IMG/VR virus record: IMGVR_UViG_2675903352_000015
Coordinates: 1 to 14,377 of that record
DNA: 14,377 nucleotides
Source of the DNA: a virus
Lineage: Duplodnaviria > Heunggongvirae > Uroviricota > Caudoviricetes
Reading direction: 5' to 3' (one strand)
Positions 1,781 through 10,311 of this stretch are shown in pieces (positions within the stretch are counted from its first letter, which is position 1; every line of letters begins with the position of its first letter). Made by a program: the position numbers and the translations under genes. The notes beneath the pieces were generated by a model, which was not told the DNA's origin, made no database searches, and saw only the letters and a program-made list of their open reading frames with translations.

Positions 1781-2863
1781 TCATTTTCTCTGGCTGATCT
1801 TTACCGGATAACCATCCCGAAGATCAATTAAGTGCTCCGGTTCAGAAGCAAACCATGCATAAGATCCCCACGCCAATTCTGGTATTGCCTTTTTAAAAGG
1901 CAGAGCACTTCTGTCAATAAATGCCGTAAGGAATGCAAGATTTTTCTCGCTGAACCCAGCGTCAATAGCCAAATGAGTGAGAGTAACTTTTCGTTCCCTG
2001 TTTATAGGCCCATCTGTCGCAACTACCTCAGTGAAAACTACAAGCATATCCGAACCCGTTCGGTCCTCTCCCAAATCAATCAAAATAATATCTGGAAGTG
2101 CTTTTGAGGCATCAATATTCAGCCCCAATGCTTTTGCCAATACATCATCCTGAGCAACAACTTTATTCCCAGATTCAGACAACCAGAGCACAGTTGGATT
2201 CTTAAGAAAATTAGGAGCAAAAACTTCGATGACGGCCTTAGCTATTGTACTTGACGGGCCCGGAGCTAAAGTTCTCTTCTCTCCATTTGGGAAAGTGACG
2301 ACTACGGCATCAGCAGCAATCACTGCCCCTGATTTCAATAAACGCAATCTAGCAAGAGCGGCTTTGTTCAAATGATTTTCCTGCCAGGAACTTATTGCAC
2401 TCAGCAGCGAATCTCCTTCAAGCCCAGCATCAAAGAGTGCTGCAAAAGAGCGATTCAAACTGTAACGAGGATGAGAGGATGTGGTGGGTATACCTTTACG
2501 CTCAACAATTGCATTGCAAGGTATTAGGCCATTTTTTATAGTTTCATCACGTATTGGCTCACGCGTATTTTCCGCATACCATGCATCAGCAGGCCTTATC
2601 TTTTGTTTAGAGAAAGTCATCTTTACCCAACTTTCTCTGGACGCATCATCAGTAAGAGCAGCCTGTGAATCTCCCATACTTACAACCTGGCTGGGCCTTA
2701 TCCATCGCCCCAGCCCCTCAACCGCACCAGCATAAAACATGACAAAAATTGTTTTTGCAGCTATTTCCCGAATTAAATATCCACGATTCTCAGTCCCTTC
2801 AGGGAAAATTAATGGTAATCTTTCCCGGATAACATTCAATGGGGGAACAACAGGCAGATTCAT
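1781..2863 (-). CDS. putative type II restriction endonuclease (resembles BsuBI/PstI family, from memory)
   Basis: 360-aa ORF directly downstream of the methyltransferase on the same strand, with ATGA start/stop overlap at 2860..2863; AT-rich composition; size and context match REases paired with Eco57I/PstI-type methyltransferases. Family assignment is from recollection only. Confidence 0.6.
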   Translation of the reverse strand: MNLPVVPPLNVIRERLPLIFPEGTENRGYLIREIAAKTIFVMFYAGAVEGLGRWIRPSQVVSMGDSQAALTDDASRESWVKMTFSKQKIRPADAWYAENTREPIRDETIKNGLIPCNAIVERKGIPTTSSHPRYSLNRSFAALFDAGLEGDSLLSAISSWQENHLNKAALARLRLLKSGAVIAADAVVVTFPNGEKRTLAPGPSSTIAKAVIEVFAPNFLKNPTVLWLSESGNKVVAQDDVLAKALGLNIDASKALPDIILIDLGEDRTGSDMLVVFTEVVATDGPINRERKVTLTHLAIDAGFSEKNLAFLTAFIDRSALPFKKAIPELAWGSYAWFASEPEHLIDLRDGYPVKISQRK

Positions 2864-4692
2864 GCAATCATCACTCCATAGAAACCAGCGATAGTTCTCT
2901 CAATAATCCGTCTGTGGACGCCGGCATCAATTAACGATTGAATCTCCATCACCTGCTCCAGAGAAGGCAACGGGATTGAATTCAATTCATAGGCCGAAAC
3001 AGCAACACTTCCGCTTATACACCTGAACGCCCGATCGACAACATGCGAATTAAGTAGCATATCAATAACATCAGGGCGAACCGCAGAGAACAATCCGTTT
3101 GAATACACAATATTAATATGGTTTTCAACTACTACGCCACCAGTTTCATCTATAAATCCCTGAGGTAAAATCGCAGCTAAAATCCTTCTGTCCTGCTCCT
3201 TCGATGTTGTCCGCTGAACAAGCACACATTCAGATTTTGTCACAAGGAAACCCTGTTGTGGGGTTATATCGATATAGGGAACATGATTTTTTCTGTCTGC
3301 GCTAAAACGGAAACCAGCTGAAGTTATTGATTCCGCCCAGACTAATGGATAGCTATTTTTTCCTTTCGTCGTACGCAACTGCGACTTAAATCGATTCCAG
3401 ACTAACTGACCTGTAGAGACTGAGTATCCCAGATCAGCTAAACGCGTAGACATCTGTTTTAATACATTAAGAAAACAAGCATCATCTTTAACTCGTGGCA
3501 AAAGCCACGTTGCTCCACCTTTTTCTATATCAACATTACCTATTTTCTCAATTTTTGCTTTGTTCAACCCCTTAGGGACAAGTGAGGATACCTGGGCCCG
3601 AACTTTATGTTCTCCCGCCTTGAATGCTGTCAACATTGTTTCCTGGAGAACATCGTCAAAGACCCCATCCCTGTCAGCGACGAAATCAAGGGCATACGGA
3701 GTAGTTTTTTCGGTCAAAAGGGTTCGCAGCGCGGTGAAATACTGCCCACCAAGAAAAGAAGTTGGCGTAAGAAATGCAATAACTCCTGTTTTCTCTTTAA
3801 CCATGCGAACAGCTAAGTCGGTGAACAATCCATATAGATTTGCATGACCAAATAACGAACGAGAATATTTTTCTCTCGTTTTAATATCGAGAGTGACACG
3901 TCCGTAAGGCGGATTCCCTACCACAAGATCATAACCAGAAATTTTATCTTGCTGAAGCGCATCAGCAACAATAATTGTATCTTCAGGCAATCTACGTTTT
4001 ACCTTTACACATAGTGGCATTAGTACAGATTCGAGCAATACCAAACTCATCCAAGCCGCAAATGGATCGATTTCTATCCCCTTTAAACGACGACTGATTC
4101 TCCTCAACATCCATTCAGGGGAAGACCCCTTGTCTTTTTTTAACATTCGAATGGCTACTGGTGCCAAAAATGCACCGCCACCACACGCAGGATCAATAAC
4201 CGATGCATGAGAAAAATCAACACCAGACTTTTCAGCCAGGTCCAAGAGACGCGCTACCAAAGGTGGGGGGGTATAGTAAGCCCCCAATTCCGAACGGTAA
4301 GCGGATGGCAGCATTACCGTATAAATTGACCCAATCAGATATCCAGCGTCCTCCGCCGGAAATTGAGCAATAAGCTCACCTGTTCGTTCAGCGAGCTCGC
4401 GTGCATCACATGGAATGTCTTCTATGTAAACAGTGTGCGGTACTGCCCTCATTTTAATGCTGCTTTTTTGCTTTTTTGCAAGGGTATCCCAATATGCAGC
4501 TACGATGCTGAAGCAGTATGAGCGGGCATGCATCAACCTTGACTGCCCGGTTTTGTAATTGCCCGCATAACCTTTGGCCATGGCTTTACAAGTTTGATAT
4601 CTTTCCAGATTAGAAAACTCATTATCTGTAAAAAAATCAAAATGTTGCACATTCATAATGTAAAATCCTAATGTATCAAACATGCGGGCCAT
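2860..4692 (-). CDS. gamma-class N6-adenine DNA methyltransferase (Eco57I/PstI-like modification subunit)
   Basis: 610 aa; motif X GAYYTPP, motif I DPACGGGAFL (SAM binding), motif IV NPPYGRV in gamma-class order. Start choice is uncertain (ATG 4692 with weak SD; internal ATG at MNVQHF has an AGGA upstream). Confidence 0.85.
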   Translation of the reverse strand: MARMFDTLGFYIMNVQHFDFFTDNEFSNLERYQTCKAMAKGYAGNYKTGQSRLMHARSYCFSIVAAYWDTLAKKQKSSIKMRAVPHTVYIEDIPCDARELAERTGELIAQFPAEDAGYLIGSIYTVMLPSAYRSELGAYYTPPPLVARLLDLAEKSGVDFSHASVIDPACGGGAFLAPVAIRMLKKDKGSSPEWMLRRISRRLKGIEIDPFAAWMSLVLLESVLMPLCVKVKRRLPEDTIIVADALQQDKISGYDLVVGNPPYGRVTLDIKTREKYSRSLFGHANLYGLFTDLAVRMVKEKTGVIAFLTPTSFLGGQYFTALRTLLTEKTTPYALDFVADRDGVFDDVLQETMLTAFKAGEHKVRAQVSSLVPKGLNKAKIEKIGNVDIEKGGATWLLPRVKDDACFLNVLKQMSTRLADLGYSVSTGQLVWNRFKSQLRTTKGKNSYPLVWAESITSAGFRFSADRKNHVPYIDITPQQGFLVTKSECVLVQRTTSKEQDRRILAAILPQGFIDETGGVVVENHINIVYSNGLFSAVRPDVIDMLLNSHVVDRAFRCISGSVAVSAYELNSIPLPSLEQVMEIQSLIDAGVHRRIIERTIAGFYGVMIA

Positions 4693-5783: not shown

Positions 5784-6749
5784 TTACCCCCTGAAGCCCG
5801 GCGGAATTTCGTTATCCGGTTCAGAAATGTGATTCACGCAACGCTGTACAGGCGAACGCCCCAGACGAATAACCAGCTCATCCCATTTTTCGCGAAGCTT
5901 TGACGGGCTCATGACGTTTTTTACCCAGAATGGATCCCGCTGTACCCGACCAAACATTTCGCAAATTTGTCTGTGAGTTCTGCCATCCAGCATCCGCATT
6001 GTGCGCACATCATTGGCCCATGCAGTCCAGTTTGGTTCTTTCGGTCGCATGATTTCGCCATCATCGCTGGCAGCCTGCTCGTAAAGACTCACGATTCGCC
6101 CCCAGATCCACTGCGCACACGCCAAATCTTCCTGGCTGCCCCACTGGCGTTTTTTCGCACTGAACACAACAGCGTCAGGGTGTCGGGTTAAAAAATCCTG
6201 TTCAGCCGTCTGCCTGTCCGGTTGCGAAGATTCCGGACGAGAAGTGTTTTTATTCTCTGTAGTAATCTCTGTTGTATTCTCTGTAAGATCATCGGGCCAT
6301 TTTGACCCGATGACATTGGGTCGTTTTGAACCAATGGAGCGTGTCATTTTGGCTCCTTCCATCGTGTCATTTTGACCTGATGGAGCGGCGCATTTTGACA
6401 TGATGGATTCGCTCACTTTGCCACCATCTAAAAGCTCGCTCTCGTAATTAATCGTGTAAAAATTAGTCATATCACGCTTTGATTTGTTGAGCTTTTCACA
6501 ACGCAAAAGCCCCAGCGTTTTCAGACTTGCAAATGCGCGTTTTAACGTTGACTCTGACCAGAAAGGGAACTGTTCCAGCCATTGTTCTGTTGTGTTATAA
6601 ATCCAGCGAACACCATCACATTCCATGCCGGAACCGGTATCTCTCAACCAGTAATGCAGCTGCTGCAACACGATGGCTTCGTTCAGACCAATTTTCATCG
6701 CCAGCTGCGTGTTTATAACCAGCGGGCGTTCAGCAAAAAGGAGCTTCAT
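5784..6749 (-). CDS. phage replication initiation protein (lambda O / Rac YdaU-like replisome organiser)
   Basis: 321 aa; strong SD (GGGGGAGGGG) before ATG 6749; follows the Cro-like and YdaT-like genes in the rightward-operon position; an iteron array and AT-rich repeats lie inside the central linker of the gene, as in lambda O/ori. Confidence 0.65.
   Translation of the reverse strand: MKLLFAERPLVINTQLAMKIGLNEAIVLQQLHYWLRDTGSGMECDGVRWIYNTTEQWLEQFPFWSESTLKRAFASLKTLGLLRCEKLNKSKRDMTNFYTINYESELLDGGKVSESIMSKCAAPSGQNDTMEGAKMTRSIGSKRPNVIGSKWPDDLTENTTEITTENKNTSRPESSQPDRQTAEQDFLTRHPDAVVFSAKKRQWGSQEDLACAQWIWGRIVSLYEQAASDDGEIMRPKEPNWTAWANDVRTMRMLDGRTHRQICEMFGRVQRDPFWVKNVMSPSKLREKWDELVIRLGRSPVQRCVNHISEPDNEIPPGFRG
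6250..6430. repeat. putative replication origin: six 23-bp-spaced iterons plus three tandem 12-bp AT-rich repeats
   Basis: TTTTG cores at 6300, 6324, 6347, 6370, 6393 and (CTTTG) 6416, unit consensus about GTCATTTTGACCnGATGGAG; adjacent TATTCTCTGTAG-like 12-mers with TCTCTGT at 6254, 6266, 6278. Confidence 0.6.
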
Positions 6750-6770: not shown

Positions 6771-7196
6771 TCAATGCGCCACCACGGCATTTCCCGCCGG
6801 ACCACCACGATTCATCTGATTGAAACCAGCAATTACCACCGCGACAAGTTCATCAGCGTCTCTCACCAGTCGTTCATGCGTATCCACCAGTTCCCGAAAA
6901 TAATCGGAACTGTGGCTGCGCATCCAGGCCACCAGCGGAGGTGGCATTGCCTTTTCGATCGCTGGTAACAAAGCCTGAATTTTTTTAACCGCATCAGGGG
7001 TGTCTTTCTCCACCCAGCGGAAAATTTTCTGAGTATTGCGAGCCAGGGCTTCCGGATGGCTGTCGTCATACAGTTCCGGGAATGTCATACCCAGCTCAAA
7101 ATAAGCCCGGGTTATTTCAGCTGCCGGAACTTTTTCACCGTCCGGACGCGCCCAGGCATTCATCGCCATGCGGATGTGTTCATGCTTGATTTTCAT
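6771..7196 (-). CDS. YdaT-like protein (Rac prophage family; role assignment from context)
   Basis: 141 aa; overlaps the end of the upstream Cro-like gene by 17 bp; SD GGGGA upstream; position and size match Rac ydaT. Confidence 0.5.
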   Translation of the reverse strand: MKIKHEHIRMAMNAWARPDGEKVPAAEITRAYFELGMTFPELYDDSHPEALARNTQKIFRWVEKDTPDAVKKIQALLPAIEKAMPPPLVAWMRSHSSDYFRELVDTHERLVRDADELVAVVIAGFNQMNRGGPAGNAVVAH

Positions 7197-7452
7197 GAAT
7201 CATCCCCGGTGTATTTGGTGTGTTAACTTTACATCCAACAGGTAAACCGTCGGTTGGGTTAGGATAAATATCAGGGCGAATTTCATGCGGGGTAACTTCC
7301 CACTTCATTAGCTGGCATAACGGAATTACCTGCTTTGGGGGAACACCAAAGCTAAACCATTGCCAAACAGTCTGTTGAGCAACTCCCATATAACGACCTA
7401 TTTCAGCTTGAGTGTGTTTCTGCCTAATTTTTTCGCGAGTGCTATCTAGCAT
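7180..7452 (-). CDS. Cro/YdaS-like HTH transcriptional regulator
   Basis: 90 aa; strong SD (GAGGAGGG) before ATG 7452; HTH segment TQAEIGRYMGVAQQTVWQW; divergent from the repressor gene across an operator-bearing intergenic region. Confidence 0.65.
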   Translation of the reverse strand: MLDSTREKIRQKHTQAEIGRYMGVAQQTVWQWFSFGVPPKQVIPLCQLMKWEVTPHEIRPDIYPNPTDGLPVGCKVNTPNTPGMIHENQA

Positions 7453-7481
7453 TTTGCCCTCCTCTAAAAAACTATAAGCAA

Positions 7482-7523
7482 ATCCTACAATAAAAAACTG
7501 TATGCGATCAACAGTTTTTTATT
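7482..7523 (-). promoter_or_regulatory. pR-like promoter with operator palindrome O1 (AAAAACTGT-N9-ACAGTTTTT)
   Basis: Perfect 13-bp inverted repeat AATAAAAAACTGT (7489..7501) / ACAGTTTTTTATT (7511..7523); on the minus strand TTGATC (-35, 7511..7506), 18-bp spacer, TAGGAT (-10, 7487..7482) upstream of the Cro-like gene. Confidence 0.5.
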
Positions 7524-7561
7524 GTGATGCTTTTAACAGTATTTGCCTGTAAAATTGGAAA

Positions 7562-7963
7562 ATGATGAACGCCCTAGAAGTATCTATGTACAGAATCAGC
7601 AAGCTTCTTCAGGAAACTGGATGGAGCCAGGCTGAGCTTGCCCGTAGAATTGGTGTGACACAGCAAACTGTTCAACAATGGGTCAGCGGTAAGGCAACAC
7701 CTAAAGCCTCAAGTTTGGATAAACTGGTTGAGGTTACAGGGCATCCATTGCATTGGTTTTTATTGCCTCCTGAAGAGAGGGAGCAAATTTTCACCCCTGA
7801 TACGATGAAAATTGGTCCTCGCCAACGCGAACTGCTCCAAGCTTTTAGTGCGTTTCCTGAGGAAGACCAGGAAAAAATGCTTCAAGAAATCAAAGACAAG
7901 AAAAAATCAATGGAAGAAACCATTGCCCGATGGTTAGCGGCACAAAAAAGCCGCCTGGCGTGA
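7562..7963 (+). CDS. CI/RacR-like prophage repressor (XRE-family HTH, no S24 peptidase domain)
   Basis: 133 aa; HTH SQAELARRIGVTQQTVQQWVSGKATP; sits between the two operator-bearing divergent promoters in the same arrangement as lambda cI; no C-terminal Ser/Lys autocleavage motif recognised. Confidence 0.7.
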   Translation: MMNALEVSMYRISKLLQETGWSQAELARRIGVTQQTVQQWVSGKATPKASSLDKLVEVTGHPLHWFLLPPEEREQIFTPDTMKIGPRQRELLQAFSAFPEEDQEKMLQEIKDKKKSMEETIARWLAAQKSRLA

Positions 7964-7990
7964 CCACTGAACAAGAAGAGGAGTTATGCC

Positions 7991-8068
7991 ATGAGTACAG
8001 CCCTTTCTCCGATAGTTTCAGAATTCGAAACAACCGAACAAGAAGACAGTTATAACTTCAAGCATTGA
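7991..8068 (+). CDS. possible small ORF (25 aa, acidic) downstream of the repressor
   Basis: ATG 7991 preceded by GAGGAG with a 7-nt spacer; MSTALSPIVSEFETTEQEDSYNFKH; lies between the repressor stop and the terminator. Could be non-coding. Confidence 0.25.
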   Translation: MSTALSPIVSEFETTEQEDSYNFKH

Positions 8069-8133
8069 AATTGCAAATATTGTGCATGCCCGACGACAAT
8101 TTACCTTCTCTATCTAAGCAGAACAATTTTCAT

Positions 8134-8159
8134 ACTCCCTCATTCGAGGGAGTTTTTTT
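8134..8159 (+). terminator. rho-independent terminator ending the repressor transcript
   Basis: 8-bp stem ACTCCCTC / GAGGGAGT with ATTC loop followed by TTTTTT (8154..8159); U-run present only for the plus-strand transcript. Confidence 0.65.
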
Positions 8160-8173
8160 GCCTAAACCAACAA

Positions 8174-8213
8174 TTAAAAACTGTTGACACAAAACAGTTT
8201 TTAATTGTAGATT
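8174..8213 (+). promoter_or_regulatory. pL-like promoter with operator palindrome O2
   Basis: TTGACA (8184..8189), 18-bp spacer, TAGATT (8208..8213); perfect 12-bp inverted repeat TTAAAAACTGTT (8174..8185) / AACAGTTTTTAA (8193..8204) overlapping the -35; same CTGT-N9-ACAG core as O1. Confidence 0.55.
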
Positions 8214-8224
8214 ATTTTCACCAA

Positions 8225-8237
8225 CCCCCCCCCCCCC
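8225..8237. repeat. homopolymeric C13 tract
   Basis: Thirteen consecutive C at 8225..8237, starting about 12 bp downstream of the pL-like -10 hexamer, in the transcript start/5' leader region. Confidence 0.9.
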
Positions 8238-8389
8238 ACAGAACGCCGGGCAATACTTCGAGTTACCCGGCAGTGGTCAGGGGTTAAGTAGCCAGCCCGA
8301 GGCGTAAGAACATGACGGCAGGGTTCAACTTTAACTATGCAGCAGGTTTTTGTTCCGCTACCCCGGCGTTAAGGGGAAATGAGGTCAAC

Positions 8390-8545
8390 ATGGATACTAT
8401 CGATCTTGGCAACAACGAATCTCTGGTGTGCGGCGTGTTCCCAAACCAGGACGGCACATTCACCGCGATGACGTATACCAAAAGCAAAATGTTTAAAACC
8501 GAAAATGGTGCCCGTCGCTGGCTGGAAAGAAACTCAGGTGAGTGA
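8390..8545 (+). CDS. small prophage protein (51 aa; resembles Rac/Qin YdaF/YdfA-type proteins from memory)
   Basis: ATG 8390 with GAGG 5 nt upstream; an in-frame upstream ATG at 8312 (GAGG 9 nt upstream) would give 77 aa, so the start is ambiguous. Confidence 0.5.
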   Translation: MDTIDLGNNESLVCGVFPNQDGTFTAMTYTKSKMFKTENGARRWLERNSGE

Positions 8546-8546
8546 T

Positions 8547-8675
8547 ATGGATTTCGACACAATCATGGAAAAGGCTTACGAAGAATACTTCGAAGGCCTT
8601 GCCGAAGGCGAAGAGGCTCTCAGCTTCAGTGAGTTTAAACAGGCGCTTTCCAGCCCGGCAAAATCTAACGGCTGA
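8547..8675 (+). CDS. small acidic protein (42 aa)
   Basis: ATG 8547 one nt after the preceding stop (coupled); MDFDTIMEKAYEEYFEGLAEGEEALSFSEFKQALSSPAKSNG. The ORF-track alternative (GTG 8542, other frame, Arg-rich low complexity) looks less protein-like. Confidence 0.4.
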   Translation: MDFDTIMEKAYEEYFEGLAEGEEALSFSEFKQALSSPAKSNG

Positions 8676-8704
8676 TAAGCGAAGCAGCACCGCGAGGAAT
8701 CAGT

Positions 8705-8923
8705 ATGCAGAAACGAGAACCCGTCATCATCGCGCCAGACTATACCGATGATGAACTTTATGAGTGGATGCACCAGAAAATTAAGGCAGCGCAGGACCTG
8801 AAATGGGCCAATGAAGCCATGGCTAAGCAGGCCGAAAATCTGTCTGCTCTGGAAAAAGATATTACCAATCTGGAAAAAGCAGCGGCATTAAGCATTGCCA
8901 GAATGATTACATACCCACGTTAA
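8705..8923 (+). CDS. hypothetical helical protein (72 aa)
   Basis: ATG 8705 with GAGGA 6 nt upstream; heptad-like, probably coiled-coil sequence; no family recognised. Confidence 0.5.
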   Translation: MQKREPVIIAPDYTDDELYEWMHQKIKAAQDLKWANEAMAKQAENLSALEKDITNLEKAAALSIARMITYPR

Positions 8924-8945
8924 TAGCTAACCAACGAGGCTAATA

Positions 8946-9353
8946 ATGGAATTTAAAGATTTACCAAAAGAAATCCAGACAATTGCTGCAACGACTCTCG
9001 GTGATAGTCTGGTGAAAATTGACCCGGCATACACCAAAAAAGAAACCATCGATAATATGGTTCGTAATGTGCGCAATGCTTTTTCTGGGCTATATGGTTC
9101 TGATAATCAAAAGCAGGAAAGCGATGTTAATAAACGGGTAATTTCTGTTTGCGTGAATGGCCATGTTCTTTCATCAATCAAAACAGAAACGGCGACAGTC
9201 TTCGATTGCCTTTGCATTGTACAGAGCCTTGTTGATGCCCTGTTTCGTTCAGTGAATTTAGAAAATGATGCAAATCTGCGAGGGCGCACAATAGCACATC
9301 CATATGCACATACTTTAGGCTCTGTGGATATCAAAGATCCCACAAATCTTTAA
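8946..9353 (+). CDS. hypothetical protein (135 aa) in an AT-rich accessory insert
   Basis: ATG 8946 with GAGG 8 nt upstream; visibly AT-richer than flanking prophage genes; no transmembrane segment or known motif recognised. Confidence 0.55.
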   Translation: MEFKDLPKEIQTIAATTLGDSLVKIDPAYTKKETIDNMVRNVRNAFSGLYGSDNQKQESDVNKRVISVCVNGHVLSSIKTETATVFDCLCIVQSLVDALFRSVNLENDANLRGRTIAHPYAHTLGSVDIKDPTNL

Positions 9354-9564
9354 TGAAATAGTTAACGCGAATTGTACTTGCTCTTTCAGTTGCTTTCAGA
9401 ATACGCGTTGAAACTGCTGGCGGTAATTTGGTATTCCATTTATTAAAATCATGCCCGGGAAAGTACTCTTCGAAAATACTTTTAACTGCAGACTCGCCTA
9501 TTGAAATGCTGCTTACCATGCGATTTTGATAAAGGCATTTAGCAATAAGAGTTGATTTTAACAT
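9331..9564 (-). CDS. hypothetical protein (77 aa), convergent with and overlapping the 3' end of the 135-aa gene
   Basis: ATG 9564..9562 preceded by AGGAGG (spacer GTGA) on the minus strand; AT-rich; 3' end overlaps the convergent gene by 23 bp. Confidence 0.45.
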   Translation of the reverse strand: MLKSTLIAKCLYQNRMVSSISIGESAVKSIFEEYFPGHDFNKWNTKLPPAVSTRILKATERASTIRVNYFIKDLWDL

Positions 9565-9957
9565 TCACCCTCCTGAGGGTTGGTAATTAAGGAGTTCTCC
9601 ACGGGTGAAATGGAGTGCGTGCGCCGGACACGGGTGAACATCCGGCACTGACAGTTTACTGAAAGGATATTTCTCTGAAAAGTCAGAGCATAACGCGAAA
9701 GCGCACGGCGAGGTTGCTGGTTCATAGATAGCCTGTCGTTAAATTTTCGTCGACCGTGCGCTTCCGGTTGTGGCACTCCGCGAAATGGCGCGGCGGTAAG
9801 TATGGCGGGGTTATTCCTTCCCCCGTTGAGGACACCGGGTTGTCAGGTTGACCATACGCTTAAGTGACAACCCCGCTGCAACGCCCTCTGTTATCAATTT
9901 TCTGTGACGTTTGGCGGCATCTGTTTGCCCATGAACTGATGTCCGCCCTTTTTAAAG

Positions 9958-10105
9958 TGAATTTTGTGATGCGGTGAATGCGGCTAAGCGCACGCGGAAC
10001 AGTTAAAGCTAAAAACAGTGTTATGGGTGGATTCTCTGTATCCGGCGTTAATTGTTAACTGGTTAACGTCACCTGGAGGCACCAGGCACCGCATCACAAA
10101 ATTCA
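9958..10105. repeat. 19-bp perfect inverted repeat pair flanking a 110-bp segment
   Basis: TGAATTTTGTGATGCGGTG at 9958..9976 and its exact reverse complement at 10087..10105; right arm ends 4 nt before the GAGGA SD of the ORF starting at 10123; internal segment contains GTTAAC-tg-GTTAAC. Confidence 0.85.
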
Positions 10106-10122
10106 TTGTTGAGGACGCGATA

Positions 10123-10311
10123 ATGGAAACGTTATTACCAAACGTTAATACGTCTGAAGGTTGTTTTGAAATTGGTGTCACTATCAGCAATCAGATATTT
10201 ACTGAAGATGCCATTAATAAAAGAAAACACGAACAGGAACTGCTAAATAAAATATGCATTGTTTCGATGCTGGCCCGTTTACGTCTGATGCAAACAGGAT
10301 GCAGGCAATGA
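10123..10311 (+). CDS. hypothetical small protein (62 aa) in the kil-region position
   Basis: ATG 10123 with GAGGA 7 nt upstream; the ORF-track GTG 10018 start would read through the inverted-repeat arm and is less likely. Confidence 0.4.
   Translation: METLLPNVNTSEGCFEIGVTISNQIFTEDAINKRKHEQELLNKICIVSMLARLRLMQTGCRQ

Follow-up and report, generated by a model that had tools for sequence, protein, structure and literature searches.

An immunity switch predicted to use 15-bp operator sites in a Qin/CP-933P-type lambdoid prophage

We characterized a 14,377-nt stretch of viral DNA (hereafter, the window), which we consider probable to contain the immunity region of a lambdoid prophage of the Qin/CP-933P type, with two palindromes acting as the operator pairs OR1-OR2 and OL2-OL1 and a 15-bp binding unit that occurs three times at OR and twice at OL. 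The region comprises a 133-aa repressor of the DicA/PaaR2 family, a divergent YdaS-type Cro, YdaT (an analogue of CII) with its YdaT-box, a terminator, and a PL-like promoter upstream of ydfABC-dicF-dicB-exo-xis-int. Each protein part has a homologue in systems demonstrated experimentally, namely DicA/DicC/dicBp of Qin and PaaR2/YdaS/YdaT/PL933P of CP-933P. In its composition, the switch is most likely of the ordinary lambda-like prophage on/off type already studied in E. coli with Qin DicA and CP-933P PaaR2. The immunity specificity is new and the kind of switch is known; our understanding of such switches is unchanged. An initial annotation of this DNA had proposed a lambda-type outline, in which the repressor gene and a terminator lie between operators on leftward PR-like and rightward PL-like promoters, and this outline is borne out, its parts being homologous to those of tested systems.

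The motif AAAAACTGT-N9-ACAGTTTTT was matched exactly at two places in the window (7493-7519 and 8176-8202) and nowhere else, even with three mismatches allowed. Two matches compare with a chance expectation of 0.01, and none of 200 shuffles yielded two. Both matches lengthen to perfect 39-bp palindromes of the form ACAAT[A/T]AAAAACTGT-N9-ACAGTTTTT[T/A]ATTGT, which we call O1 (7487-7525) and O2 (8170-8208); the palindromes are thus real, and the coordinates first given for them (7489-7523 and 8174-8204) fall inside these limits. The accompanying description as twin operators stands insofar as there are two exact palindromes, but from comparative data each is likely a pair of neighbouring 15-bp ACA-N9-TGT units, with a further unit at 7536-7550, so that the layout would be 3 + 2 rather than 1 + 1. 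Since this third site has no partner 9 bp away, ACA-N9-TGT is probably the operator unit, with three copies at OR and two at OL. The units start at 7487, 7511, and 7536 in the repressor/cro intergenic region and at 8170 and 8194 at the downstream promoter, and their consensus is ACA[A/G][T/G]-(A/T-rich)-...TGT. Exact ACA-N9-TGT sites number nine in the window, relative to ~3.9 expected, and five of the nine lie within the two control regions.

The five putative operators hold distinct positions relative to the promoters. OR1 (7487-7501; ACAATAAAAAACTGT) is the left arm of O1 and occupies the spacer of the PR-like promoter, which points leftward; it is invariant across seven E. coli-type sequences, and a site at its position occurs in Salmonella, Raoultella, and Arsenophonus loci but is degenerate in Serratia. 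OR2 (7511-7525; ACAGTTTTTTATTGT) is the right arm of O1 and abuts the -35 of PR. Towards the repressor gene, the weak -35 region of the repressor promoter follows it closely, and OR2 is centred about -44 from the ATG at 7562. The lone OR3 (7536-7550; ACAGTATTTGCCTGT) fills the spacer of the PRM-like promoter, with its final T serving as the first base of the -10, and its position over the repressor promoter is conserved in every related locus. At the other end, OL2 (8170-8184; ACAATTAAAAACTGT), the left arm of O2, abuts the PL -35 and overlaps its first T, and OL1 (8194-8208; ACAGTTTTTAATTGT), the right arm, fills the PL spacer, with its last T as the first base of the -10. Natural variants of OL1 are ACAATTTTTAATTGT in CAU16175 and ACAGTTTTTTATTGT in O157. 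A literature search with the four operator 15-mers returned no relevant paper. Within each palindrome, one arm is the exact reverse complement of the other both here and in IHE3034, a feature that the two-site model neither explains nor needs.

The PL-like promoter (8184-8213, plus strand) consists of TTGACA (8184-8189), an 18-nt spacer, and TAGATT (8208-8213), and it scored 10 of 12 in a consensus scan; its -35 sits at the centre of O2, in agreement with the overlap noted earlier. The corresponding putative PR-like promoter of the cro-like/ydaT/O operon (7482-7511, minus strand), which had likewise been placed at O1, reads TTGATC (7511-7506), 18 nt, and TAGGAT (7487-7482). Because its score of 8 of 12 is under the scan threshold, it was read by eye and by the parallel with PL, whose geometry it shares base for base. 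The PRM-like promoter start region (7550-7564, plus strand), also under the threshold, has a -10 of TAAAAT (7550-7555) followed by 6 nt and the repressor ATG at 7562, with a poor -35 (GATGCT). The repressor start lacks a Shine-Dalgarno sequence and the geometry TAAAAT/TAGAAT-N6-ATGATG is kept in five divergent loci; the repressor mRNA is probably leaderless, and a leaderless start has been shown experimentally for PaaR2 (PMC8630535). The repressor operon ends in an intrinsic terminator (8134-8160, plus strand), found where the annotation had put it between the operators, with a stem at 8134-8153 (8 pairs, 5 of them G-C) and a T7 run; it is conserved in relatives, downstream of parE. Rfam gave no match within the window at gathering thresholds, and at E-value thresholds gave sub-threshold DicF-like and STnc100-like matches, both outside the switch region. 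The PL leader (8220-8330) folds no better than shuffles (z = -0.24), giving no sign of structured RNA there.

The repressor gene (7562-7963, plus strand) lies between O1 and O2, as annotated, and its product matches Pfam HTH_3 (E 2e-13). In a structure model, an N-terminal Cro/C1-type HTH domain, whose recognition helix reads TQQTVQQW, is joined by a disordered linker to two helices at the C-terminus. The NCBIfam DicA subfamily aligns with residues 11-129 of 133 (E 2e-14) at 53 bits, below the curated cut-off of 101 bits, indicating that the protein is a relative within the family and not a DicA orthologue; its identity to K-12 DicA is 28% over 111 residues. A fold search with the model retrieved Cro/C1 HTH domains of a generic kind; the C-terminal helices matched nothing. 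By sequence, the best PDB match of the HTH domain is the 434 repressor, which also matches the model structurally (TM 0.77). The recognition helix keeps the Q-Q and second Q of 434 (TQQTVQQ vs. TQQSIEQ), a Q standing where 434 has Gln33, and the DNA is similar too, in that an ACAA or ACAG half-site lies at each outer edge, the centre is A/T-rich, and OR has three sites ~24 bp apart. Still, identity to 434 is confined to the HTH domain (~30%), and the sites of the window and its relatives are all 15-bp ACA-N9-TGT, as opposed to the 14-bp ACAA-N6-TTGT that we read directly in the operators of the imm434 phage HK446. The C-terminus differs as well, with two helices of the DicA/PaaR2 type instead of an autocleaving S24 domain. 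Its last 50 aa are 58% identical to PaaR2 (our own count on the BLASTP alignment); Pfam and NCBIfam gave HTH-type matches only, with no S24/peptidase domain, and therefore induction would not follow the lambda CI/RecA route.

One speculative and rather unlikely extension of these likenesses is that the repressor is a natural chimera, in which a 434-type DNA-reading head is joined to a PaaR2-type octamerising tail and reads half-sites 1 bp further apart. On this proposal, the mirror-image pairs of E. coli (OR1 the reverse complement of OR2, and OL2 of OL1) would have been selected, with a dyad-symmetric tetramer binding each 39-bp palindrome as one unit and bridging 683 bp. If true, the cooperative geometry would be unlike that of the tandem sites of lambda and 434. 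Independently of that proposal, the 434-like head and PaaR2-like tail of the repressor exemplify modular exchange, with the boundaries of the cassette visible against a PL leader that is common to thousands of prophages.

Relatives were sought by scanning species genomes with a recognition-helix pattern, which returned mostly unrelated Firmicutes HTH proteins and four useful enterobacterial loci. The 3 + 2 layout of sites, at the same promoter positions, was found in the relatives from Salmonella (repressor 80% identical to that of the window), Raoultella (68%), and Arsenophonus (49%), the middle OR site being degenerate in the last, whereas the layout is degenerate in Serratia. Sites in these relatives are 24/25 bp apart at OR and 23-24 bp at OL; the N9 within a site is constant, while the spacer between sites is 8, 9, or 10 bp. 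Paired sites are not mutual reverse complements in the relatives, although single sites are internally symmetric (e.g., ACAGTAAATTACTGT). Even the O157:H7 copy, with a repressor 97% identical to that of the window, has an N10 spacer between its OL sites. The promoter register is fixed in all loci (site-TGTTGAC...site-TGTAGATT). Variation across the seven E. coli-type sequences affects 1 of 45 operator columns, relative to 11 of 64 in the remaining intergenic DNA (our own count; Fisher one-sided p = 0.012). When 50 half-sites from five loci were pooled, the half-site was A-C-A-R-K-W-W, with an ACA whose invariance is partly built in because the sites were picked by the ACA pattern, and the central five bases were 94% A/T. 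Half-sites are ACAC or ACAAC in those relatives whose helix carries K or R instead of its last Q, a correspondence that covers four specificity groups only.

These comparisons bear on the reading that each 27-bp palindrome, AAAAACTGT-N9-ACAGTTTTT, is a single operator for one dimer with CTGT/ACAG half-sites, one at PR and one at PL. Such a reading has some appeal, as the symmetry in the window is perfect and reaches the 15-bp arms, and repression of each promoter would need no more than one symmetric site over its -35. We nevertheless regard it as improbable. The 27-bp symmetry is not conserved, given that the arms in Salmonella, Raoultella, Arsenophonus, and (at OL) O157:H7 are not reverse complements and their gap ranges over 8-10 bp, while the ACA-N9-TGT units keep both length and position. 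It also leaves aside the partnerless third unit over the repressor promoter in every locus, and it has no need of the outer ACAAT/ATTGT, which are invariant. Finally, 13 bp separate the CTGT/ACAG centres, and such half-sites would face outwards (TGT...ACA), whereas the recognition helix suggests a 434-type reading of the opposite orientation.

The genes divergent from the repressor are arranged as annotated. The Cro analogue, of the YdaS family (7180-7452, minus strand; 90 aa), matches Pfam YdaS_toxin (E 7e-10) and phrog_35 (transcriptional repressor), and its recognition helix, AQQTVWQW, is similar to that of the repressor. It is followed by YdaT (6771-7196, minus strand), which matches Pfam YdaT_toxin and the structures 3C4R (E 1e-82) and 8BT1, the CP-933P YdaT (E 2e-74), and by an O-like gene (5784-6749, minus strand). 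At the ydaS/ydaT junction is a YdaT-box (7186-7203; TTGATTTTCATGAATCAT) with one mismatch to TTGATT-N6-AATCAA, the sole match that close in the window; its location is that of OM in CP-933P, and its sequence, read on the opposite strand, is that given for the Rac YdaT-box in PMC11879457.

Downstream of the repressor, the slot that was likened to rex of lambda is taken instead by the remnant of a paaA/parE-type toxin-antitoxin module (7991-8068, plus strand). Alignment with IHE3034 and translation showed that a 352-bp deletion has fused antitoxin codons 1-21 to the last four toxin codons, leaving a 25-codon ORF, and an intact paaR-paaA-parE operon is absent in the window. The pair is intact in the IHE3034 and O157:H7 relatives, where it matches PaaA2 (E 1e-22) and ParE2 (E 2e-38). 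The promoter-proximal part of the PL operon (8390-10311, plus strand) contains ydfA-like (DUF1391) and ydfB/ydfC-like genes, a 135-aa ORF, the DicF-like sRNA (9899-9948) that gave the sub-threshold Rfam match, and an intact dicB (10123-10311, plus strand). Exonuclease, DUF4224, and integrase genes lie beyond dicB.

The annotation had also suggested that the repressor may be conditionally essential by analogy with Rac, a comparison that proved weak. Rac does share the divergent repressor/YdaS-YdaT layout and an identical YdaT-box sequence, but its proteins are only distant relatives of those in the window: RacR shows marginal HTH similarity (BLASTP E 0.001 over 53 residues) and no orthology to the repressor, and identity is 33% over 51 residues for YdaS and 31% for YdaT. 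The lethality of racR loss has been attributed to Rac YdaT acting via rcsA, which the YdaT of CP-933P, the type found in the window, does not activate (PMC8630535; PMC11879457). Moreover, YdaS and YdaT of CP-933P are reported to be regulators and not a toxin-antitoxin pair, while prolonged overexpression of YdaS slows growth (PMC8630535; PMC11879457). Should derepression prove toxic, DicB/DicF would be a more plausible source than YdaS/YdaT. Encoded in the PL operon, DicB and DicF would also be the likelier reason for any conditional essentiality of the repressor, as with dicA in Qin.

Loss of the toxin-antitoxin module next to the repressor means that the prophage may be defective, and it raises the question of whether the switch is a fossil, with the palindromes as leftovers of a cryptic prophage that no longer have a regulatory role. 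Many E. coli prophages of the Qin/CP-933P type are indeed defective (PMC8630535; PMC9986795), and the PL leader of the window is interrupted by an apparent C13 tract at 8225-8237, the 141-bp stretch around which is matched at no more than 93.8% among complete E. coli genomes. Against such decay, the ORFs of the repressor, the Cro-like protein, and YdaT are all intact, the promoters retain good hexamers, and the operators are more conserved than the remaining intergenic DNA across the E. coli-type copies. The switches of the cryptic Qin and CP-933P prophages still work, and there is an advantage in keeping repression in force when dicB, still intact, and a DicF-like sRNA lie downstream. A fossil switch is accordingly doubtful in our estimation. 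Least credible by far is that the palindromes are LexA (SOS) boxes, whose core CTGT...ACAG resembles, or structures such as an RNA hairpin/terminator or cruciform, as a scan that flagged 8170-8208 as terminator-like (16 pairs, then a T-rich tail) might suggest. As LexA boxes they were rejected on spacing (CTGT-N9-ACAG vs. N8, with no N8 match in 7400-8300), and O2 was rejected as a second terminator hairpin, having only 3 G-C pairs, lying directly after a strong terminator, and losing its palindromic character in relatives that keep the 15-bp units.

Returning to the five-site reading, we infer from the sequence how binding, stoichiometry, activation, looping, and induction might proceed. One repressor dimer would bind per 15-bp site and read ACA at both outer edges, much as the 434 repressor does with ACAA, over an A/T-rich, uncontacted centre 1 bp longer than in 434. 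Since the site is longer by that base pair, a 434-like geometry should not be assumed. The Cro analogue, with its near-identical helix, would be expected to compete for the same sites. Repressor at OR1, in the PR spacer, and at OR2 would turn off the cro-ydaT-O operon, and at OL1, in the PL spacer, and OL2 would turn off ydfABC-dicF-dicB-exo-xis-int. From its place just upstream of the weak -35, OR2 would probably also serve to activate the leaderless repressor promoter, while OR3, in the spacer of that promoter, would provide negative autoregulation at high repressor levels. PaaR2 octamerises, and the homology of its C-terminal helices with those of the repressor makes it plausible that sites cooperate in pairs and that a loop joins OR to OL, whose centres are 683 bp apart here and 1035 bp apart where the toxin-antitoxin pair is intact. 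During establishment, YdaT at its box would boost repressor synthesis as CII does. Lacking an autocleavage domain, the repressor would be released by an antirepressor or by stochastic takeover by Cro, as reported for DicA. Published footprints of PaaR2 comprise four 18-bp inverted repeats, overlapping "operators", and a continuous 78-bp protection, a complexity suggesting that the number of sites in a DicA/PaaR2-family region may not translate directly into a number of dimers. The analysis offers a testable operator map of five 15-bp sites in fixed register with three promoters.

For PaaR2/YdaS and DicA/DicC, operator binding, repression, and a bistable switch have been shown, while their counterpart in the window is predicted. 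The closest likeness is to CP-933P of O157:H7 (PMC8630535; PMC9986795), which has the same order of repressor, antitoxin, toxin, terminator, PL, and DUF1391 operon on one side and of YdaS, YdaT, and replication protein on the other, the same -10-to-ATG geometry at the leaderless paaR2, and a PL leader whose sequence to the right of the cassette is, in the part read, almost the same. In contrast, the DNA-binding domains are unrelated, PaaR2 beginning MQKKEIRRLRLKEWF... where the window has a 434-like HTH; the operator repeats of CP-933P and phage Evi are of the GTTTAGTGTT type and not ACA-N9-TGT; three sites occur at OL vs. the two found here; and the toxin-antitoxin pair is deleted in the window. 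Qin of K-12 similarly has a short repressor of the same family without a RecA cleavage site, a divergent Cro-like gene, and a repressor-controlled promoter just downstream that drives ydfA-ydfB-ydfC-dicF-dicB, so that dicBp, like PL933P, is the counterpart of the PL in the window. It differs in its 20-bp operator, TTGTTAGTCATAACTAACAA, and in having DicC and YdfX in place of YdaS and YdaT.

At the DNA level, megablast against phage genomes found no immunity cassette like that of the window, the shared PL leader being the sole match. At the protein level, the nearest repressors in phage records are 25-53% identical and include those of Gifsy-1/2, mEp237, and PaaR2 of phage Evi. The immunity type of the window is carried by an O157:H7 genome, with its 97% identical repressor and an intact toxin-antitoxin pair, and this copy possibly corresponds to the locus named "paaR1" by Hallez et al. 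2010. The operator map could be used to predict heteroimmunity among E. coli prophages and which of them keep DicB/DicF silent. This specificity is present in ~500 of 5,426 complete E. coli genomes, O157:H7 and ST95 strains among them.

The best DNA matches of the window are E. coli chromosomes, and the immunity region is present in about 509 of 5,426 complete E. coli genomes. In the closest copies (strains CAU16175 and IHE3034), RefSeq annotates YdaT, a 'transcriptional regulator' and an HTH repressor on the left; rightward, the repressor is followed by a RelB-family antitoxin, a RelE/ParE toxin, DUF1391 (ydfA), ydfB, ydfC, dicB, an exonuclease, DUF4224 and an integrase. This is the gene layout of the dicA-dicC-dicB region of Qin in K-12 and of the paaR2-paaA2-parE2/ydaS-ydaT region of CP-933P in O157:H7. 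The whole of the NCBIfam DicA subfamily model aligned with the repressor (E 2e-14, under the cut-off), and the repressor is 28% identical to DicA. PaaR2 was recovered from phage Evi, where the regulator begins MQKKE, as published, and adjoins a 98% identical PaaA2. The C-terminal 50 residues of the repressor and PaaR2 are 58% identical by a hand count on the BLASTP alignment, whereas their N-terminal DNA-binding domains are unrelated. RacR, YdaS and YdaT of Rac are only distant relatives of the window's proteins. The window's YdaT matches PDB 3C4R (E 1e-82) and 8BT1, the CP-933P YdaT structure (2e-74), and a copy of the published YdaT target TTGATT-N6-AATCAA, differing by a single mismatch, spans 7186-7203; as in CP-933P, it lies where ydaS meets ydaT. 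Read on the other strand, this box (TTGATTTTCATGAATCAT) is identical to the YdaT box of Rac, even though identity between the two YdaT proteins is just 31%, in agreement with published cross-binding between Rac and CP-933P YdaT.

A pattern scan of the 14.4-kb window found exact AAAAACTGT-N9-ACAGTTTTT at 7493-7519 and 8176-8202 and no third copy in the window with three mismatches permitted; two matches arose in 0 of 200 dinucleotide-preserving shuffles, with 0.01 expected by chance. In full, O1 (ACAATAAAAAACTGT-ATGCGATCA-ACAGTTTTTTATTGT, 7487-7525) and O2 (ACAATTAAAAACTGT-TGACACAAA-ACAGTTTTTAATTGT, 8170-8208) are both perfect 39-bp palindromes with 15-bp arms. The twin palindromes reported in the initial annotation are therefore present as sequence, exact twice and above shuffle expectation. 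The spacing of CTGT and ACAG excludes a reading of O1 and O2 as LexA boxes, and a role of O2 as a hairpin is unlikely.

The operator unit is probably the 15-mer ACA-N9-TGT, as judged from its recurrence in related loci. The window has nine such sites (about four expected), and five of these are at 7487 and 7511 (the O1 arms, OR1 and OR2), 8170 and 8194 (the O2 arms, OL2 and OL1) and 7536, a solitary site just before the repressor ATG. Four related loci were compared, from Salmonella, Serratia, Raoultella and Arsenophonus (repressor identity 80, 76, 68 and 49%). Each carries three units in the repressor/cro intergenic region, 24 and 25 bp apart centre to centre, and two units spaced by 23-24 bp over a TTGAC-type promoter of the downstream operon; the Serratia sites and the middle OR site in Arsenophonus are degenerate. 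Unit length is constant across loci, with 8, 9 or 10 bp separating neighboring units. Single units in the relatives are internally symmetric (e.g., ACAGTAAATTACTGT), and paired units in the four relatives are not mutual reverse complements. Even in the O157:H7 copy, whose repressor is 97% identical, the OL gap is 10 bp and the arms are not mirror images. These unit and spacing data go against the binding of one repressor dimer per palindrome, which we disfavor. With the 15-mer as the unit, the two 'operators' of the initial annotation become OR1 (7487-7501) plus OR2 (7511-7525) and OL2 (8170-8184) plus OL1 (8194-8208), joined by OR3 (7536-7550); both palindromes are real, and the conserved unit length and the lone site at 7536 replace the twin arrangement with one of three plus two units. 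The exact mirror symmetry between the arms of each palindrome, seen in the window's lineage, may stem from a recent conversion event involving the PR and PL modules, which are alike over >45 bp, or from selection for a dyad-symmetric tetramer.

It is conceivable that the switch is a non-functional fossil, but we disfavor this since the ORFs are intact and the operator sites are conserved. Among seven E. coli-type copies, counted by hand on the sequences, 1 of 45 operator columns was variable vs. 11 of 64 other intergenic columns (Fisher one-sided p = 0.012). Within sites, natural variation affects position 4 (G/A) and position 10, which lies in the inner part of the site.

The register of the promoters on these units is fixed in the loci compared: the TGT of the upstream unit leads into the TTGAC of the -35, and the downstream unit occupies the 18-nt spacer, its final T opening the -10 (TGTAGATT, TGTAGGAT, TGTAAAAT). 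A consensus scan placed the rightward PL-like promoter at 8184-8213 (TTGACA-18-TAGATT, plus strand), with its -35 in the center of O2 as the initial annotation had proposed. On the minus strand, TTGATC (7511-7506)-18-TAGGAT (7487-7482) has exactly the same register around O1; its score of 8/12 is under the scan threshold, so PR is read through its parallel with PL, and so read it bears out the claim that O1 covers the leftward -35. The repressor ORF (7562-7963) and a terminator stem followed by T7 (8134-8153, consensus scan) were also found between the operators, as claimed, and the YdaS-like, YdaT-like and O-like genes lie divergently to the left of the repressor. For PRM, the repressor's own promoter, a good -10 hexamer (TAAAAT, 7550-7555) ends 6 bases ahead of the ATG, a geometry common to all five loci compared. 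The -35 is poor (GATGCT) and a Shine-Dalgarno sequence is lacking, which by analogy with paaR2 and lambda cI points to a leaderless, activator-dependent promoter.

How the sites may be read is suggested by the HTH domain, which, of all solved structures, matches 434 repressor best (TQQTVQQ aligned to TQQSIEQ); a fold search of the repressor model agreed, but many other Cro/C1 domains were also returned. In the 434 complex, as reported by Aggarwal/Harrison and Koudelka/Ptashne, ACAA is recognized by the first two glutamines of the helix together with Gln33, and the uncontacted A/T-rich center of the operators raises affinity. Those contacts make a 434-like reading of the ACA half-sites plausible here. 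Pooling 50 half-sites from five loci gave the consensus A-C-A-R-K followed by A/T, with 94% A/T in the central five bases of the sites; since sites were chosen by the ACA-N9-TGT pattern, ACA is invariant in part by design. The operators of HK446, an imm434 phage whose repressor N-terminal domain is identical to that of 434, were read directly as 14-bp ACAA-N6-TTGT (three OR and three OL), and the present sites resemble 434 operators with one additional central base pair. A 434-like reading is further supported by the helix of the Cro analog (AQQTVWQW), which nearly equals the repressor's, as in 434, and by covariation in a small sample of relatives: where K or R replaces the last glutamine (Rahnella, Klebsiella spallanzanii, Pectobacterium and a second E. 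coli type), the half-sites are ACAC or ACAAC. Four such loci (L009, L012, L013 and L014), with K/R for Q at recognition-helix position seven and ACAC.../ACAAC... half-sites at equivalent OR/OL positions, offer a small set of natural variants from which the base specificity of the helix could be mapped.

The logic of the lambda-style layout has been demonstrated in the homologous Qin and CP-933P systems and would apply here by analogy. DicA represses dicBp, with operator-like sequences in the dicA-dicC and dicA-dicBp intergenic regions, and its binding to the 20-bp operator Oc serves both to repress dicC and to activate dicA. Footprints of PaaR2 and YdaS were obtained on a 97-bp intergenic region, and the two proteins repress PR and PRM as well as the downstream PL933P, which has related operators; paaR2 is leaderless (PMC8630535), PaaR2 octamerizes and YdaT activates a PRE-like promoter. 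In the window, OR1 in the PR spacer and OR2 against its -35 would block cro-ydaT-O transcription when occupied. Likewise, OL1 in the PL spacer and OL2 against the PL -35 would silence ydfABC, the DicF-like sRNA, dicB and the exonuclease, excisionase-like and integrase genes. OR2, centered at about -44, could activate PRM and OR3 could autorepress it. The PaaR2-like C-terminal helices, by model and alignment, suggest higher oligomers, which would make pairwise cooperativity and OR-OL bridging plausible over 683 bp (1,035 bp in copies with an intact toxin-antitoxin pair). Pfam and NCBIfam searches and the structure model revealed no peptidase domain in the repressor, so release should resemble that of DicA, by the antirepressor Rem or by RecA-independent stochastic switching requiring DicC, rather than that of lambda.

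The parallel with lambda fails at the rex position, which is occupied instead by a PaaA2/ParE2-type remnant. A 352-bp deletion joins codons 1-21 of the PaaA2-like antitoxin to the final four of the ParE2-like toxin, leaving a 25-codon fusion ORF (7991-8068, junction near 8052); CAU16175 has the same deletion, and the addiction module lost in this way is intact in IHE3034 and O157:H7 relatives. The literature agrees that racR is deletable only without ydaS-ydaT; the toxic agent in Rac is YdaT via rcsA, which CP-933P-type YdaT does not activate (PMC11879457). YdaS and YdaT of CP-933P are reported to be regulators and not a toxin-antitoxin pair, although prolonged YdaS overexpression causes a growth defect (PMC8630535, PMC11879457). 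An intact dicB (10123-10311, 87% identical to K-12 DicB) and a DicF-like gene under PL make conditional essentiality of the repressor plausible, the cause, by analogy with dicA, more likely being inhibition of cell division. The DicF-like match (9899-9948, upstream of the dicB start) is full length at 41.1 bits vs. a gathering score of 48 (E 6e-7), and an STnc100-like match (9946-10155, 39 bits vs. 47) overlaps the dicB start.

In the PL leader, a run of 13 C (8225-8237) lies where the variable immunity cassette meets a widely shared leader. Relatives have CCCACCCCGCCCC or shorter there, CAU16175 has a 15-bp deletion, and no complete E. coli genome matches 8160-8300 above 93.8%; the run is a private variant, possibly prone to slippage, or else an artifact of sequencing. 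The leader at 8238-8330 occurs in 3,639 of 5,426 complete E. coli genomes, with up to six copies in each; as far as about 8300, matches extend to phage genomes, Evi among them, irrespective of immunity type. A hairpin (GCCGGG...CCCGGC) is present in this leader, and its predicted fold is no better than that of shuffled sequence (z = -0.24).

This type of system is already well known; the operator set and the combination of a 434-like head with a PaaR2-like tail were not found in the searchable literature. The same immunity type is present in O157:H7, where it may correspond to the locus that Hallez et al. (2010) called 'paaR1'. Elsewhere in the window, a LexA-box-like CTGT-N8-ACAG is exact at 1100-1115 (CTGTTGTCGTCAACAG), just upstream of ORF 752-1084 (phrog_1212); its center is G/C-rich and the count of such matches is at chance level. 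Further down the cro-ydaT-O operon, the prophage's equivalent of an early rightward operon, a BsuBI/PstI-type restriction endonuclease and an Eco57I/N6-type methyltransferase (1781-4692, minus strand) are carried as cargo.
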